This document shows, in pieces, positions 3,160 to 58,659 of a stretch of 64,000 nucleotides of DNA. The notes under the pieces were generated by a model. That model ran no database searches. It was not told the origin of the DNA and saw nothing but the letters and a program-made list of their open reading frames with translations. Source of the stretch: Shigella phage Sf25; sequence record MF327009. One strand, written 5' to 3'. Each line of letters starts with the position of its first letter. The first letter of the stretch is position 1. A program made the translations under genes and the position numbers.

Positions 3160-3312
3160 GTGATTTCCTCTTGCCTACTAATGGGCCGTCAGGAATTTTG
3201 TTTTCCTGGATATATTTCTCATTTTCTTCCATCATTTTACTGCCAATTTTAAGAAGCAAATCCAATGCTTCATTTGCTTTAGCCTTGGCCTCTTCTAGCG
3301 TCATATCTCTGT

Positions 3313-3516
3313 TCACGATTTATCCCCATAGATGTCTCTCATCAATTTAAGCGCTGAGCGTTCTAATTTCTTTTCTTTCTCAACGCTAATCATTGATTTC
3401 ATCCATTCTTCTGATTCGTTCTGCATTTCTTTATTTGCTTGTTCAACCCAACCATCATCAATGTACATTGAGTTTGGTCTATTGAACCATTCAAACATTT
3501 TCTTCAGAACTTTCAT
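3313..3516 (-). CDS. hypothetical protein (67 aa)
   Basis: Minus-strand ORF, charged and helical-looking. Confidence 0.35.
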
Positions 3517-4009
3517 TTGTTTTACCTAAAACAACAGTAGGAGCATCATCAAATTCATGAATTTTTAGCAAATTTGGATGTAAACTATTCCATACAGAAG
3601 AAATAAAGTATGATAAAGCATCTTCACTCACAATTATAAATTTATTTCCTTTATCTATTTTCCAACTATATACTGAATCATACGAATAGAAAGATAAAGG
3701 TTTATCATTATAATGTTCTGTGCTAACATTAATGTATTCAGATTTAGTAAATGCTTCAATTGCTCTAAACGGAATATTTGGTACAGTTTCAATAATACCA
3801 ATCTTTTTAAGTTTTATTTCAGCATCTTCTGGAACTGGCATTGAAACAAAATTTTCTACGAGATACATTGGGTCACAATAACCCTTATCAATCATTACTG
3901 CTACGGTAATTGGAACGTCTTTAGCAAACGACATGCTATTACTGCTAATATACATTTCAAACAAAATCGCTTCCATATTTTTCCTCAATCGCAAGATGTA
4001 GATGAACAA
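3491..4009 (-). CDS. hypothetical protein (172 aa)
   Basis: Minus-strand ORF. Confidence 0.45.
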
Positions 4010-4326
4010 CTAGAATCGCAAGAACTTCCACACGAATCGCCCGTCCATACATGAACAGGAACATTAGTGTCATATGAATCAGAACTAGACTGTGTATTCT
4101 GCGTATTAGATGATGTAGTAGGTGTTGACCAGCGCCAAGGATTTTTATAATATTCTTGGGCTTCTTCATAAGTCATAGTAACTGCTTCTACTGTTCCATC
4201 TCCCATATAAACATATTCAACTACAGTTAAAGGAAGGTAGTCATTTGAAATAGGAACTACACCTTCCCCAGGAGTCGTAGAGAAAAAATCCGTAAAGAAA
4301 CTTTTAAACCAATTAAAGATAAACAT
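3985..4326 (-). CDS. hypothetical protein with Cys/Ser-rich C-terminus (113 aa)
   Basis: C-terminal [16 protein letters not shown] tail; start overlaps stop of upstream ORF. Confidence 0.4.
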
Positions 4327-4532
4327 TACAAAAAGCCTCTTTTGAATTCAACTTGTTTATCGCCATAATCATATCGAATCTCTGCATTAAATTCAACAGA
4401 ACCATCTGCGTACATCATAAATGAATGCACAACAACTTCTGTGGACCATGGCTGTAGTTCATATTTCTTCATTACATGTCGTGAAATGATAATATCTAAA
4501 TCTTCATTTGGTTTAATCCAGCGATTTAACAT
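4326..4532 (-). CDS. hypothetical protein (68 aa)
   Basis: Minus-strand ORF preceded by a strong early promoter. Confidence 0.4.
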   Translation of the reverse strand: MLNRWIKPNEDLDIIISRHVMKKYELQPWSTEVVVHSFMMYADGSVEFNAEIRYDYGDKQVEFKRGFL

Positions 4533-4554
4533 AGTGCTCTCCTCTATAAGATAA

Positions 4555-4590
4555 TTCTATTATACCATACTCATTTTGGAAAGTAAACCA
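4555..4590 (-). promoter_or_regulatory. T4-type early promoter (GTTTAC N18 TATAAT)
   Basis: Minus strand reads GTTTACtttccaaaatgagtatggTATAAT upstream of the 4326-4532 ORF. Confidence 0.55.
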
Positions 4591-4597
4591 TTTAAAT

Positions 4598-4622
4598 GAA
4601 AAAAGGACTCCCGAAGGAGTCC
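4598..4622 (-). terminator. rho-independent terminator downstream of soc
   Basis: Hairpin ggactcc-cgaa-ggagtcc followed on the minus strand by a run of U. Confidence 0.6.
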
Positions 4623-4628
4623 TTGAAT

Positions 4629-4874
4629 TTATTCACCAGTTACTTTCCACAAATCTTCATTTGCAGCAATCCATTCAGTACGTTGATTTTCTTCATATAC
4701 TGTAGAATATGCTGCTTTTTCTGAAGGGAATATCTGGTAATGAGCGCCAGAAATTTTATGAACGTCAGAATAAAGAGGGAAAGCTACAGAAATTTCCTTT
4801 CCTTCAATTTTCTTATTTCCATCTAATTTTTGCTCAAATGTTTTAATATTAACATAACCGCGAGTACTAGCCAT
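4629..4874 (-). CDS. soc: small outer capsid protein Soc
   Basis: 81 aa, MASTRGYVNIKTFEQKLDGNKK... near-identical to T4 Soc as recalled; late promoter upstream. Confidence 0.85.
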   Translation of the reverse strand: MASTRGYVNIKTFEQKLDGNKKIEGKEISVAFPLYSDVHKISGAHYQIFPSEKAAYSTVYEENQRTEWIAANEDLWKVTGE

Positions 4875-4904
4875 GTAATTCTCCTTTTATTTAAATTACA
4901 TGAT

Positions 4905-4912
4905 TATTTATA
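4905..4912 (-). promoter_or_regulatory. T4 late promoter TATAAATA for soc
   Basis: plus-strand tatttata, i.e. TATAAATA on minus, about 30 nt upstream of the soc ATG with an AGGAG RBS between. Confidence 0.55.
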
Positions 4913-4957
4913 ATAAATTCTCGCGGCTTTTAAGTCGTCGTTTATTTAAATGAGCTA

Positions 4958-5720
4958 TTAATAGCCTCGATCTTGACGAGCGAAGTTTTCAGCATTTTTC
5001 AGATAATAAAGTTTAAAGATTTCCTCAGCTGACATTCCAAGAGCAATGAATTTATTCATGAAAAAGTGAAATTGGTCAATCAGTTCAAATTTAATTTCAA
5101 GCTGATCTTCAGGAGATAAGTCTTGAATTTTCTTGGATTGCATTTCAGAATAACGTTTCTTCCAAGGTTTCCATACAGCAGAAGCTTCTTTTTCACCATT
5201 ACTCATACCACCAAGAGAAGTATATAGCTCGCGAGTTTCATCTGCGATATAATCGTCTTGGTTTCGCAACCAAGCAAGAACTTCTCCTGCAGTTTCAAGT
5301 GAATCAGGATGACGATTTGTTTCTGGTTTATCATTAGCCAAACGAATCTGTAAATGCCGCTGCATGTCAAATTTTCTTGGATTGCATTTCAGAATAACGT
5401 TTCTTCCAAGGTTTCCATACAGCAGAAGCTTCTTTTTCACCATTACTCATACCACCAAGAGAAGTATATAGCTCGCGAGTTTCATCTGCGATATAATCGT
5501 CTTGGTTTCGCAACCAAGCAAGAACTTCTCCTGCAGTTTCAAGTGAATCAGGATGACGATTTGTTTCTGGTTTATCATTAGCCAAACGAATCTGTAAATG
5601 CCGCTGCATGTCAAGCATAACCTGCAATGGGTCAATACTGTGCATAATATACTCAGCATATGCACGATTTGCTTTATCAACACCTTCGATCAAATGAGCA
5701 CATTCATTAAAGTGAGCCAT
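4958..5720 (-). pseudogene. 56: gene 56 dCTPase/dUTPase, frameshifted by an internal 244-bp tandem duplication
   Basis: Both ORF pieces (5367-5735 and 4958-5443) carry the same segment; N-terminus MAHFNECAHLIEGVDKANRAY and C-terminus ...KNAENFARQDRGY match T4 gp56; 244 is not a multiple of 3. Confidence 0.7.
5126..5613. repeat. perfect tandem duplication, 2 x 244 bp, inside gene 56
   Basis: 5126-5369 is identical to 5370-5613. Confidence 0.9.
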
Positions 5721-5780
5721 TATTTTTCCTTTCAATTCATTAATAAGTTAAATAATTATATCATTTGAGTATGTAAGCAA

Positions 5781-7120
<1,340 letters not shown>

Positions 7121-7139
7121 TATATCATCCTCAGCAATT

Positions 7140-7176
7140 TGTTTTATAATACCATAACAAGCTGAGAAAGTAAACA
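7140..7176 (-). promoter_or_regulatory. T4-type early promoter (GTTTAC N18 TATTAT)
   Basis: gtaaac at 7170-7175 on plus strand; -10 TATTAT; followed by GAGGATGA RBS and the ATG at 7120. Confidence 0.5.
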
Positions 7177-7213
7177 AATTTATGATAAATATTAATTTAA
7201 AGGAGGACGACGC

Positions 7214-7414
7214 ATGGTACAAAAATTAATGGCACTTGTTAATGCCATCAAAGGTAATAAAAAACGTATAGCTTTTACTATTTCTGCTATGGTAGGAATT
7301 TTACTCTGGAACTTTATTTTATCACCTGTTGCAATTGCACATGGTATTAATATTCCAGTAGTTACTCTTGATACATTCGTAGATTTAGCATTTGCTTTAG
7401 TTGGGTTAATTTAA
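7214..7414 (+). CDS. small hydrophobic protein (66 aa), plus strand
   Basis: AAGGAGGA Shine-Dalgarno 6-8 nt before the ATG at 7214; two hydrophobic segments; fills the gap between gene 61 stop and the next minus gene. Confidence 0.4.
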   Translation: MVQKLMALVNAIKGNKKRIAFTISAMVGILLWNFILSPVAIAHGINIPVVTLDTFVDLAFALVGLI

Positions 7415-8439
7415 ATCTTAGCATATTTAGATAACCTCATTTTAGCCATCAACCCCTGGGCAATATTATTTTTCATATATTCCATAATTTGTTCAGGGGT
7501 TGCACCTTCCTTTCTAATCATATCATTAACATCTTTTGATTTCCAGGGAGATTTATCCCAAAACATAACTCTTTCTCCTGCATCAACTAATTTAGTCATT
7601 CGTTTGATAGTGTCAGGGTGACGAGGTTCATTATCTAAAACCCACACTCGTCTATCTTTAAATGGAACAACTTCTAGGTCTAATTGACCACCCGTAATAG
7701 CTATACCATTTTCAATAAAAAGTGAATCTATAGGTCCTTCTAGAACATATACATCACCATCTTTAACTCGTTCAACACCGTAAATTTTTGTTGCCTCAGG
7801 ATAAGCTTTGATGGTGATATACTTTTGTGGAGCATCTTTCTTTAATGCACGACCTTGAAAAGACTCAGCTTTTCCGTTAGCATTATAAATTGGAATAACA
7901 AGACGAGGCTCAGAAATTTCCTTTTTGTATGTTCCCGGTGCTATGCTATTAACTAATTTAGGCCATTCGGTTGTAAACCAAAGATATTTCCATTTATCCT
8001 TTGGAATACAACGAGCTTTTACATATTTTATAATTGGATGGTCTTCCGCCAGTTTATCTAATCTAACGCATGACGGAAGAGATTTAATTATTTTCTTCTC
8101 AGGCTGTTTAGGAAGTTCTTTAGGTTTTTCTACTGGACGACTTTTACCTTTTTCTTTTCTTATTTCAAAGATATACTCACGATATAAATCAGGTTCAAAC
8201 TCCTTTAAATATATTCCGATTGGTGCATGATAGTTACAGTTATAACAATGAATATTTCCTTCATTATTATCACCATAATACCATCCACGGGCTTTATTTT
8301 GGTCGGTTTTTGAATCTCCACAAACAGGGCATCTAAACCGCAACTTAAAGGTTGAACTATTATTTACTTGTGTAAATTTAGGTAAATGAGCTAATGCACG
8401 GTATGCAAACTCATTATCAATCCAAGGTATTGATGACAT
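7411..8439 (-). CDS. 61: DNA primase gp61
   Basis: 342 aa; zinc ribbon CPVCGDSK...CYNC; length and position match T4 gp61. Confidence 0.85.
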   Translation of the reverse strand: MSSIPWIDNEFAYRALAHLPKFTQVNNSSTFKLRFRCPVCGDSKTDQNKARGWYYGDNNEGNIHCYNCNYHAPIGIYLKEFEPDLYREYIFEIRKEKGKSRPVEKPKELPKQPEKKIIKSLPSCVRLDKLAEDHPIIKYVKARCIPKDKWKYLWFTTEWPKLVNSIAPGTYKKEISEPRLVIPIYNANGKAESFQGRALKKDAPQKYITIKAYPEATKIYGVERVKDGDVYVLEGPIDSLFIENGIAITGGQLDLEVVPFKDRRVWVLDNEPRHPDTIKRMTKLVDAGERVMFWDKSPWKSKDVNDMIRKEGATPEQIMEYMKNNIAQGLMAKMRLSKYAKI

Positions 8440-8441
8440 TT

Positions 8442-8607
8442 TTACTCTTCTTTTTCTTTAGATTCCTCTTTCTTCTTTTTAGGAATCTGTTCAGGACCTT
8501 TATTTACTACAGCACCTGACGTTGTTCCAGTAGAGATATTTTCAGGATTACCACCTGAATCTCCAGCGACCATATCTTCTTTAATAAATTCTTTATATGT
8601 TTTCATA
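8442..8607 (-). CDS. small protein with internal-protein-like N-terminal leader (about 55 aa)
   Basis: Below the ORF-track cutoff; begins MKTYKEFIKE, like the capsid-targeting leader of T4 internal proteins; Lys/Glu-rich tail. Confidence 0.35.
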
Positions 8608-9234
8608 TTAACCTCTATTCATAAAAGCATTAAAAATTTGGTCATCAATAGAAACATTTACTTTAGACTGTTTTTCTGATGGTAATTCATATCCACATAT
8701 CACAATTTTATGATCAATATCAAAATACACAGAAGCAATATGATTAATGATATTTTCAGTGAAGTCTAAATCGACATCAATATCTTTTTGACCAAAGCCC
8801 AAAGGATAAATAATGCGAGTAATTCGATTATCTTTAACAAAGATTCCACCGACATACTCTGTACTGCGTTTAAAGTCTACACGCCGACGAAATGAAAAAT
8901 ATTCAGGCTCTTTATGAGCTCGGCTCATAGGACACAACGAATAACTAGAATAAGAGATGTCAAATCCTACGCCTTCAATATGAGCCAAAGTGTCATGATT
9001 AAACCAATTATAATCGTACGCCAAATCCATTAGATTATAATATGTAAAAGGCACCGGATTAACATCATTAGTCACAAGCATGTAATTAGCAACTGCTATA
9101 ATTTCATTGTTTTTAACGAATACAAACCGTGATTGATGCGAATGACCTGGACCCGCGTTTTCACGATTAATGATATAACACTGGGCACCTTTATATTTGT
9201 ATGTATCTTTGCACTTGTGCATTTGATAGAGCAT
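8608..9234 (-). CDS. hypothetical protein (208 aa)
   Basis: Minus-strand ORF between sp and gene 61. Confidence 0.45.
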   Translation of the reverse strand: MLYQMHKCKDTYKYKGAQCYIINRENAGPGHSHQSRFVFVKNNEIIAVANYMLVTNDVNPVPFTYYNLMDLAYDYNWFNHDTLAHIEGVGFDISYSSYSLCPMSRAHKEPEYFSFRRRVDFKRSTEYVGGIFVKDNRITRIIYPLGFGQKDIDVDLDFTENIINHIASVYFDIDHKIVICGYELPSEKQSKVNVSIDDQIFNAFMNRG

Positions 9235-53035: not shown

Positions 53036-53509
53036 TTATTTGAACGATTTAACGTACTGAATAGAACCTTTACTATTTACAAAGGCAATTTTACCATTTT
53101 TATTATACATTGTAGCAGTACGTTGATAGCCATAAGTTTGTTTACCAGATTGATAACCAACTAATGCAAAATTATCTTCACCCATTTTATTCTGTTTAGC
53201 GCGAATGCGTTCATGACCATGTGCCATAAGAACCTTAGCATCACCAGTTGCAATGGATCGACGAGTTTTTTCATCTTCAACTGTATTAACAAAGTCGTCA
53301 AATGAATCAAATTTAGCATGAGATTTATTATACAATTTTCCATCTACTGCATAATTATATCCCTGTACATCCATCTCAACTTCTGTACCATCATCCAATA
53401 CAGCAGTAATTTTCTGTCCTTTTTTAAATTTCAAAAGATCAGTAAAAGATTCAGCAATAATTTGAGAATTAATAGCTGCTTCAGTGATAAATTCTTGATA
53501 TGTTTTCAT
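53036..53509 (-). CDS. internal protein (IPII/IPIII family) with capsid-targeting leader
   Basis: N-terminus MKTYQEFITEAA (leader cleaved by the prohead protease in T4 IPs); position next to e. Confidence 0.6.
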   Translation of the reverse strand: MKTYQEFITEAAINSQIIAESFTDLLKFKKGQKITAVLDDGTEVEMDVQGYNYAVDGKLYNKSHAKFDSFDDFVNTVEDEKTRRSIATGDAKVLMAHGHERIRAKQNKMGEDNFALVGYQSGKQTYGYQRTATMYNKNGKIAFVNSKGSIQYVKSFK

Positions 53510-53525
53510 GTGTATCCTTTAATTT

Positions 53526-53843
53526 TTATTCTTTAGGGAAGTTTTTAGAATATGCATCATAAAGCTTATTTCCAATACGGCGGAAAACTCTAGCCGCAAA
53601 ACGATTTTCTGGGTTTTTAATCATGATTTGCATCATATAAGTACCCGCGTCAGAAAGAGCTTCTTCATAGTACCCGTTAATTTCTTTAAGAGTCCTACGT
53701 TTACCGCCAGGACCATCAACAGTGATTTTCCATTTACCTGTAGAAGTGCGACTTGGCGGCTCAACTTGTTCAATCCAGATATAACCGCCTTCTACACGTT
53801 GTCCTGCAGCAGATTCTGCAATAAATTCTTGATAGGTTTTCAT
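53526..53843 (-). CDS. internal protein (IPII/IPIII family) with capsid-targeting leader
   Basis: N-terminus MKTYQEFIAESAA; basic. Confidence 0.6.
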   Translation of the reverse strand: MKTYQEFIAESAAGQRVEGGYIWIEQVEPPSRTSTGKWKITVDGPGGKRRTLKEINGYYEEALSDAGTYMMQIMIKNPENRFAARVFRRIGNKLYDAYSKNFPKE

Positions 53844-53931: not shown

Positions 53932-54462
<531 letters not shown>

Positions 54463-58137: not shown

Positions 58138-58611
58138 TTATTTGATTTGTTTAGCAGACCAAATGCGGTCTTTAATAATTTTTTGGATGTCTTCAACATA
58201 TTCAAGAGAGTGAACATGTGGGTTATCTTTGAAACTATAAGCACGAGCTAGCTTTTGGCCTTCAGTTTTGATTACTAAAAGCTCTTTAAGGATAGCTTCA
58301 TATTTGGAGATAATTCCTTTAACGATATTTTTCTCTTGTGTGACTTTAGGATCTGCTTTAGGAGCAGGTTTATCTGAAGCCTTTGCAAAAGCAGCTCCAG
58401 TAGCAACTAAACTTTTCCAAGCCATACTAACTGCATTCCCTGTAAATCCTTCGGCTTTCATATCACGAGCAAATTGGAATCGTGATTCATCGGAAGCATC
58501 TTTATAGGAATATTTACCCGCGGCAATGGCTGCTTTTGCGACAGCTTGAATTTCGGTGCTAGATGCTTCATTTAGCACCGCTTCATTTAAAAATTGAGCA
58601 TATGATTTCAT
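58138..58611 (-). CDS. internal-protein-like capsid-packaged protein with CTS leader
   Basis: N-terminus MKSYAQFLNEAVLNE (CTS-like); preceded by late promoter TATAAATA and RBS; Ala/Lys-rich. Confidence 0.5.
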   Translation of the reverse strand: MKSYAQFLNEAVLNEASSTEIQAVAKAAIAAGKYSYKDASDESRFQFARDMKAEGFTGNAVSMAWKSLVATGAAFAKASDKPAPKADPKVTQEKNIVKGIISKYEAILKELLVIKTEGQKLARAYSFKDNPHVHSLEYVEDIQKIIKDRIWSAKQIK

Positions 58612-58651: not shown

Positions 58652-58659
58652 TATTTATA
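58652..58659 (-). promoter_or_regulatory. T4 late promoter TATAAATA
   Basis: plus-strand tatttata immediately after the terminator on minus, about 40 nt upstream of the ATG at 58611. Confidence 0.5.

Follow-up and report, generated by a model that had tools for sequence, protein, structure and literature searches.

Gene 61.1 and its genomic neighborhood

The window, by which we mean the whole stretch of 64,000 nucleotides from Shigella phage Sf25 (record MF327009) that was analyzed here, carries a small open reading frame (ORF) immediately upstream of the primase gene 61. Its translation is MKTYKEFIKEDMVAGDSGGNPENISTGTTSGAVVNKGPEQIPKKKKEESKEKEE. Over the 2.2 kb tested, the sequence of the window shows 100% identity to that of Shigella phage Sf24, which belongs to the T4-type genus Tequatrovirus and in which this ORF is annotated as "similar to phage T4 gp61.1". 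The first-pass annotation had placed an ORF at 8442 to 8607, between gene 61 and sp. There is indeed an ATG-initiated ORF at this location with gene 61 on one side, but its end is at 8606, one base earlier than given, and the neighbor on the other side is 61.2 (adfA), with sp located one gene further upstream. The features of the locus are as follows.

8442 to 8606, minus strand: coding sequence of gene 61.1, with an ATG start, 54 codons and a TAA stop (from the ORF list)
8577 to 8606, minus strand: codons 1-10 of 61.1, MKTYKEFIKE, a leader resembling a capsid targeting sequence (CTS) and ending in I-K-E, a site of the gp21 type
8493 to 8576, minus strand: codons 11-38 of 61.1, DMVAGDSGGNPENISTGTTSGAVVNKGP, a copy of the N-terminus of gp23* (N-fist, gp23 residues 66-93)
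8445 to 8492, minus strand: codons 39-54 of 61.1, EQIPKKKKEESKEKEE, a tail with a polybasic patch that is conserved in the family alignments
8612 to 8615, minus strand: GAGG, the Shine-Dalgarno ribosome-binding site of 61.1, located 5 nt ahead of the ATG, as seen in the sequence itself
7411 to 8439, minus strand: primase gene 61, the syntenic partner of the family, with its ATG at 8439, 2 nt downstream of the 61.1 stop

The genes are tightly packed. The stop codon of 61.2/adfA at 8608-8610 is one base away from the ATG of 61.1, and the distance between the 61.1 stop codon and the start of gene 61 is 2 nt in both Sf24 and T4. The T4 and Sf24 copies of 61.1 differ at six nucleotides and two residues, one of which is position 4 of the leader (MKTFKEFIKE in T4). 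On the other side of the primase gene, between dam and gene 61 (6560-7414 in the window), Sf24 contains about 1 kb of extra sequence compared to T4, which holds a 220-aa ORF on the minus strand, for which the record notes CATH 3.40.1350.10, and a 66-aa membrane ORF on the plus strand.

Gene 61.1 is under strong purifying selection. In a comparison with the orthologs from Dhakavirus and Jiaodavirus, the core of the gene (codons 11-42) had pN values of 0.08-0.12 against saturated pS values of 0.75-0.79, and the leader codons were under weaker constraint than the core. A tblastn search with the protein gave matches in 1485 phage records, and both frame and length were kept in the orthologs examined. 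PHROG 1823 matches residues 1-54 at an E-value of 7e-34, and PHROG 2086 matches 61.1 through its profile positions 109-154 at an E-value of 2.6e-16. The product is predicted to be a small, intrinsically disordered protein; we found no functional studies of gp61.1 in the literature.

The leader resembles the capsid targeting sequence of the internal proteins

The first ten residues of 61.1 had been compared in the first-pass annotation with the leaders of four ORFs of the internal protein (IP) type, all of which are present in the window.

53036 to 53509, minus strand: IP-type ORF with the leader MKTYQEFITE, identical to the 61.1 leader at 8 of 10 residues
53526 to 53843, minus strand: IP-type ORF with the leader MKTYQEFIAE, identical at 8 of 10 residues
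61573 to 61830, minus strand: IP-type ORF with the leader MKTYKEFATE, identical at 8 of 10 residues
58138 to 58611, minus strand: IP-type ORF with the leader MKSYAQFLNE, identical at 5 of 10 residues

The leader match that had been noted is confirmed, as the similarity extends well past MKTY and includes Tyr4, Phe7, Ile8, and Glu10. Mutagenesis of the CTS in IPIII has assigned positions 4 and 7 to targeting and positions 8 and 10 to processing (PMC9026906). Residues 8-10 of 61.1 read I-K-E, which fits the gp21 site (L/I)-x-E at the end of the leader. We searched the 64 kb window in its six reading frames with the CTS consensus pattern MK[TSA]Y.[EQ]F[ILA].E, and exactly five ORFs matched, namely 61.1 and the four IP-type ORFs, while no match was obtained in 200 composition-preserving shuffles. 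The Escherichia phage WG01 has a much larger complement of ORFs with CTS-type leaders than the four in the window, with at least nine such ORFs across the denV-e and tRNA-57B regions (45-95 kb).

The residues associated with targeting are, however, not conserved among the orthologs of 61.1. The leaders drift at positions 4 and 7, from MKTFKEFIKE in T4 to MKSFKEVMNE in Dhakavirus and MKTFKEFVKLNE in Jiaodavirus, and the 61.1 leaders in WG01, JS10, and Klebsiella phage 5N are all of one of the latter two types. By contrast, Tyr4 and Phe7 are both kept in 19 of the 19 IP-type ORFs from Sf24, WG01, JS10, and Klebsiella phage 5N. The P1' residue following the site also differs, since it is Asp or Glu in most members of the 61.1 family but small or neutral in the sampled IP-type ORFs.

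We considered whether the leader was imported from an ip gene by recombination, and rejected this. The DNA identity to the ip genes is limited to the 30 coding bases, which is explained by codon usage, and the DNA comparison revealed no similarity to the ip genes upstream of the 61.1 ATG, where the sequences are unrelated. In a MAFFT alignment, the leader is instead placed opposite the linker that precedes the conserved module in the closest long members of the family described below (...KEIFKELPLFE/DMVAGD in Mosigvirus, aligned with MKTYKEF--IKE/DMVAGD, where the slash marks the site). This makes a remnant origin likelier than import, and the leader of 61.1 appears, on the basis of the alignment, to be a remnant of the linker of a longer ancestral form.

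Homology to the maturation junction and N-fist of gp23

The resemblance of 61.1 to proteins of the phage head goes beyond the leader. [quoted passage not shown] The leader is aligned with gp23 residues 56-65, such that Glu10 of 61.1 is placed on Glu65 of gp23. This is the site of maturation, as the prohead protease gp21 cuts the first 65 residues off gp23 (PMC9546572). The N-fist of the mature protein, gp23*, consists of 25 residues (PMC9958956), and residues 11-38 of 61.1 are the counterpart of this N-fist and the start of the N-arm, i.e. of the first 28 residues of gp23*. Residues 66-105 of gp23 are located in the interior of the unexpanded head (PMC9546572). The N-terminal stretch of gp23* is there disordered, faces inward and probably contacts the scaffolding core, and after expansion it is found on the outer surface, where it contacts four neighboring subunits and helps form the Soc site (PMC9546572, PMC9958956).

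The homology was recovered by several methods. A profile of 18 short-form sequences of the 61.1 family, searched against all PDB sequences, matched only T4 gp23 chains (best E-value 2.3e-5), and a profile of 120 long-form sequences was aligned by hhalign with gp23 residues 55-98 at 94.7% probability. The local alignment score between 61.1 and gp23 was 80, compared to 29 +/- 4.4 for shuffled sequences (n=5000). With gp23 residues 50-100 as the query, 61.1 was the best match among the 944 ORFs of the window, and gp23 has the identical residue at nine of the ten positions that do not vary in the 61.1 family. When the gp23 N-terminus was used in a word-indexed search, no more than 11 fragments were retrieved.

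While the propeptide junction and the N-fist sequence of gp23 are present in 61.1, the HK97-fold body, or Gp23 domain, is absent from this protein of 54 residues. Accordingly, 61.1 has no match in Pfam even at an E-value of 10, since the Gp23 model (PF07068) covers only gp23 residues 88-517, and there was likewise no match in NCBIfam. The first-pass annotation had connected 61.1 to the capsid through its leader; a link to head maturation is strengthened by the homology of the N-terminal 38 residues to the gp23 junction, which had not been foreseen. Residues 2-38 suggest, short of proving it, that 61.1 encodes a peptide that may be targeted to the head and cut by the protease.

The 61.1 family consists of long and short forms

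The short forms of 61.1, with lengths of 51-62 aa, are found in Tequatrovirus, Dhakavirus, and Jiaodavirus. A VR5-type phage, which we take to be a Gaprivervirus, contains a match with 86% identity to 61.1, a comparison made on identity and not on length. Elsewhere in the Straboviridae, long forms of 121-166 aa are present, for example in RB16, Aeromonas phage 65, Acinetobacter phage KARL-1, and Vibrio phage VH7D, and the usual length in the family is 150-170 aa. In all Straboviridae records that were examined (the window, Sf24, T4, RB69, RB16, Aeromonas phage 65, KARL-1, VH7D, and Serratia phage WSPA), the family gene directly precedes the primase gene.

All of these proteins, including 61.1, have a conserved C-terminal element in common, which consists of a protease-site motif, [LIVM]-x-E, followed by the module (D/E/A)(M/V)VAGD..G...NIA.G.T.GA..N.GP and a KKKK/KKRK patch. 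The protease-site motif is kept in long and short forms across the Straboviridae; P3 is L, I, M, or V in 145 of the 155 family members scored, and P1 is Glu in 135 of these 155. The 16 residues after the module contain on average 6.4 Lys/Arg (166 family members). In alignments, the T-even 61.1 corresponds to the C-terminal ~50 residues (about 46-53) of the long form, and the Sf24 and T4 proteins thereby lack a helical N-terminal domain (N-domain) of about 100 residues, with the start codon falling in the linker of the long form. Because the module is the conserved core of a longer family, the T-even 61.1 is, judging from the alignments, a truncated derivative that keeps only the junction module. 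When the N-domain was lost, the T-even phages retained precisely the leader, site, and module.

AlphaFold predicts the N-domain of the long form to be helical (pLDDT 80-88) and the C-terminal module to be disordered. The N-domain had no match in the PDB, and its matches in BFVD were unnamed phage proteins. The idea that it might be homologous to the gp23 propeptide was abandoned, as hhalign aligned only the C-terminal module. The ~100-residue domain defines a large, uncharacterized family in phages that comprises 1921 clusters at E<=1e-3, with the long form corresponding to PHROG 2086 and a related N-domain family to PHROG 18642. The C-terminal ends in this wider family vary and consist of either a small beta-rich domain, a motif resembling the arm of the major capsid protein (MCP), or a conserved ...RW.KYLNLED...TTGAL..IRRR domain; the extra C-terminal domain of the distant members has no counterpart in the window. 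The N-domain is common in replication and nucleotide-metabolism neighborhoods, and one distant member is located among RNR, RNase H, and nuclease genes.

In RB69, the family gene is split by a frameshift into "ORF032c" and "61.1" (1199-1665), which overlap by 4 nt and together correspond to one intact long-form gene of 155 aa in phage JM10. The split is either a true frameshift or a sequencing error in the record.

Relationship between the module and the capsid proteins

To relate the tail modules of the family to the N-fists of the MCPs, we compared the proteins from Sf24, RB16, and KVP40/VH7D. Tail modules and MCP N-fists were identical at 14-20 of 29 positions, which may be compared with 19-20 of 29 between MCP N-fists from different genera and 17-20 of 29 between the tails. 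The KVP40-type pair of tail and MCP, at 20 of 29, has AVV.GD and TTGAVTN.GP in common. There was no clear diagonal in the 3x3 identity matrix, i.e. the tails were not systematically closest to the MCP of their own phage within the Straboviridae. Residue-level co-variation between the tail and its own MCP within this family of phages was rejected for this reason, and parallel change was only observed between T4 and a pelagiphage.

This pelagiphage is HTVC008M, a member of the Kyanoviridae that infects the SAR11 bacterium Pelagibacter and in which about 2 kb separate the family gene from the primase gene downstream of it. The family is here split into an N-domain protein (gp141) and a module-bearing protein (gp143). 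The latter starts with MKTFTDFSTDLLRLKTQLEGKQQE/DIANVAGDGAVSMPPTARKVVKKKK, where the slash again marks the site, and in the capsid protein the corresponding region is ...AFLGE/IANVTGSAVANWDPILISLVRR. Compared to their T4 counterparts, the MCP arm and the tail module are each shorter by about 13 residues, and IANV.G..AV occurs in the two of them, although the short alignment between them is by itself of marginal significance. The similarities suggest that the capsid N-terminus and the 61.1 module may have been under a common constraint that has been maintained for a long time.

Beside the N-domain gene in HTVC008M (3194-6038), there are three ORFs with the leaders MKSFKDFQNVNE, MRTYRAFKKD, and MKTFTDFSTD. 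These leaders, in the module-bearing protein and two neighboring ORFs, thus have the form MK(T/S)F.DF or MRTYRAF, and no further leaders similar to those of the T-even phages were found in 110 kb of the HTVC008M genome. Their presence hints that CTS-type leaders may be older than the T-even phages.

Promoters and timing of expression

The ip genes and 61.1 differ in their promoters, as seen from the following matches.

58652 to 58659, minus strand: match to the late promoter TATAAATA, 41 nt upstream of the IP-type ORF starting at 58611
54440 to 54460, minus strand: match to the late promoter TATAAATA, about 0.6 kb upstream of the ORF starting at 53843 and about 0.9 kb upstream of the ORF starting at 53509
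8605 to 8631, minus strand: MotA-box-like match to a middle promoter, AATGCTTTTATGAATAGAGGTTAATAT, a match to the consensus only, with identical sequence in T4

Each IP-type ORF has the late promoter TATAAATA at about 0.04-1.1 kb upstream. For 61.1, the nearest such sequence upstream on the coding strand is 39 kb away, and only variants with one mismatch are present between 8606 and 47668. The -10 element (TAATAT) of the putative middle promoter overlaps the start codon of 61.1, and this promoter would therefore serve gene 61 rather than 61.1. In a time course of T4 infection, the 61.1 RNA was classified as early, the temporal class of the protein was given as "NA", and the proteins of 61.2, sp, 61.4, and dmd were classified as early, while ipI, ipII, and ipIII had early RNA and late protein (PMC9697503 supplement). 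Neither a supply from a late promoter nor a late accumulation of the protein was thus seen for 61.1. The suggestion that 61.1 is an additional protein of the IP type is in agreement with the leader, the I-K-E site, and the gp23-junction homology, but not with the promoter, the temporal class, or the drift at positions 4 and 7. Recent reviews do not list gp61.1 in their inventories of T4 head proteins (PMC9546572, PMC9958956), and we found no published report of gp61.1 in proheads or virions.

Comparison with known systems

The gp61.1 protein has features in common with several groups of T4 proteins. With IPI, IPII, IPIII, and the polymorphic IP-type ORFs, it shares the ten-residue leader MK(T/S/A)Y-x-(E/Q)-F-(I/L/A)-x-E with its gp21-type Glu end, a gene on the minus strand, and a Lys-rich segment in the mature part. 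Unlike the IPs, it is encoded by a single conserved gene in the replication cluster between genes 41 and 61 rather than in the variable IP loci, has no late promoter, and has a leader in which positions 4 and 7 are not kept in other genera. The mature part of gp61.1 would be only 44 residues long, predicted to be disordered, and homologous to gp23. It also derives from a family of 150-170 aa proteins without an N-terminal CTS.

The homology to gp23 covers 37 residues in register with the Glu65/Ala66 cleavage site, and both segments are disordered when unassembled, but gp61.1 contains no HK97-fold body, and a polybasic tail replaces the N-arm and the capsid domains. The long-form family (PHROG 2086, with the N-domain of PHROG 18642) has the same C-terminal module and the same position adjacent to the primase gene. 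Finally, Dmd, TifA (61.4), and AdfA (61.2) are, like gp61.1, small early proteins from the stretch between genes 41 and 61; gp61.1 differs from them in its far wider phylogenetic distribution and in its conserved link to the primase gene.

Possible functions of gp61.1

The explanation that we tentatively prefer, while giving it somewhat less than an even chance, is that gp61.1 is a substrate of gp21 that would be targeted to the head core at low copy number. The protein combines a pre-cleavage decapeptide, a [LIVM]-x-E protease site, an N-fist of about 28 residues, and a polybasic patch. In the prohead, the corresponding stretch of gp23 lies on the inside, probably against the scaffolding core, and is cut there by gp21. 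As gp61.1 copies a stretch that is handled in the prohead, the same partners would be expected to recognize it. It would thus enter the prohead core in a small number of copies, assisted, in the T-even phages, by the coincidence of its leader with the CTS of the internal proteins, and gp21 would cleave it after Glu10 to free a peptide of 44 residues, which might be packaged and later injected. The uncleaved protein would be recognizable by the tryptic peptide EDMVAGDSGGNPENIS(T/I)GTTSGAVVNK, and the protein cut after Glu10 by the semi-tryptic peptide DMVAGD...VVNK.

As judged from these sequence comparisons, a handling of gp61.1 by the head-maturation machinery is favored by three points: its site falls exactly in register with the gp23 cut site, the hydrophobic-x-Glu motif is family-wide, and precisely the leader, site, and N-fist remained once the N-domain had been lost. 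Counting against a role in the head core, the family gene is tied to the primase gene and not to the head genes. The location in the early cluster nevertheless leaves a role in head assembly open, since gene 40, which encodes a head-assembly factor, is part of the same cluster. If gp61.1 does enter the core, it would be a low-copy component and not an abundant internal protein.

A broader version of this idea, which we regard as possible but doubtful, is that T4-like phages infecting hosts from enterobacteria to SAR11 keep a free-standing mimic of the capsid junction and N-fist beside the primase gene, which would act in trans in head maturation. Such a mimic might be a substrate or pseudo-substrate of gp21, a core-bound peptide, or a supplier of N-fists near the gp24 vertices or the portal. 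The CTS of the internal proteins would then be a shortened mimic of the pre-cleavage decapeptide in gp23, with the pattern aromatic-x-x-F-(I/L)-x-E.

Nearly as likely as targeting to the head core, although still improbable taken on its own, is that gp61.1 stays in the cytoplasm as an unpackaged mimic, which is made early and engages a factor that handles the gp23 N-terminus, thereby tuning or timing head assembly. Its partner could be the protease gp21, which gp61.1 would inhibit or occupy as a pseudo-substrate; unassembled gp23, a chaperone, and gp22 of the scaffold are further candidates. The homology to gp23 counts in favor of this reading as it does for the preferred one, and the early transcription without a late promoter, the loose constraint on the leader, and the acidic P1' residue, which is atypical of the sampled cleaved leaders, also fit with such a protein. 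The maintenance of the family in phages of very different hosts also points to a core phage process rather than to host-specific warfare. On the other hand, the candidate partners are late proteins whereas 61.1 is an early gene, and the strict hydrophobic-x-Glu motif in the gp23 register is more simply understood as a site of real cleavage, which happens inside proheads.

The constant association with the primase gene raises the question of whether gp61.1 is a replication accessory protein that cooperates with the gp61/gp41 primosome, for instance by means of its basic tail, with the likeness to gp23 being a functionless leftover. The early transcript, the 2 nt between the stop of 61.1 and the start of gene 61 in Sf24 and T4, the position directly upstream of the primase gene in the Straboviridae records examined and near it in HTVC008M, and the distant member among RNR, RNase H, and nuclease genes are all consistent with such a role. 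Yet the domain that is shared with the relatives in replication modules is the one that the T-even phages dropped, and only the gp23-like module was kept. Moreover, the invariant residues of the family are those that are identical in gp23, and the tail is as near to the MCP N-fists as the MCPs are to each other, neither of which is expected for a functionless relic. We therefore consider this explanation unlikely.

A role in counter-defense, as a member of the anti-toxin island or as an early decoy for a host sensor of the capsid N-terminus, is in our view slightly less likely still. The gene is small, made early and adjoins adfA in the anti-TA island, of which other genes have been called "attractive anti-toxin candidates" (PMC9391042), and mimicry of a capsid segment would fit with a decoy. 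However, both the family and its association with the primase gene reach far beyond the carriers of dmd, tifA, and adfA, to phages of Vibrio, Aeromonas, and Acinetobacter and to the split form in the SAR11 phage, so that 61.1 looks like a core rather than an accessory gene. A decoy for Lit was given less weight, since gp23 residue 93 is the last one that the module covers; the Gol region that is sensed by Lit, described as the most conserved part of gp23, is presumably located just downstream of this residue. Finally, the lack of a temporal class for the protein in the T4 time-course proteome and of functional literature might suggest that 61.1 is not a functional gene or that its leader is similar by coincidence, but this is effectively excluded by the low pN relative to pS in the core, the 1485 matching phage records with conserved frame and length in the orthologs examined, the good ribosome-binding site, and the absence of the CTS pattern from all 200 shuffles.

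Gene 61.1 is one of many uncharacterized ORFs in T4, and it belongs to a family that extends across the Straboviridae and beyond. If the peptide enters proheads and is cut by gp21, it would be a new component of one of the best-studied virus assembly systems, and would imply that genes of the early cluster can feed the head core. It would be of the known type of head protein that has a CTS and is processed by gp21, with the twist that the cargo itself mimics the capsid junction, and would offer a natural minimal substrate (10 + 44 residues) for studies of gp21 specificity and CTS docking. The IP leaders, the pre-junction segment of 61.1, and residues 56-65 of gp23 also resemble one another, and this three-way likeness gives an indication of what the CTS may recognize, which has been a question since the CTS was defined.

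Database names of the 61.1 homologs

Database pipelines have picked up the likeness between 61.1 and gp23 solely in the form of a misnaming of the homologs. The tblastn matches named "major capsid protein" were evaluated as true capsid genes and rejected, as they are 61.1 homologs of 139-162 aa located beside the primase gene. They were consequently given no weight as evidence for the homology to gp23, which consists of the blastp alignment, the PDB profile search, the hhalign comparison, and the shuffle score. Since the homologs do not contain the Gp23 capsid domain, the name is a misannotation, and hundreds of "major capsid protein" entries for these small proteins in the databases are wrong. 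The labels "major capsid protein" and "major capsid domain-containing protein" are attached to 61.1 homologs of 53-166 aa, which are located beside the primase gene where this was checked, and their sole basis is the likeness of 30-40 residues to the gp23 N-terminus. Examples are found in Serratia phage WSPA (334-753), Klebsiella phage VAC13 (244-732), and many UniRef and NCBI names.
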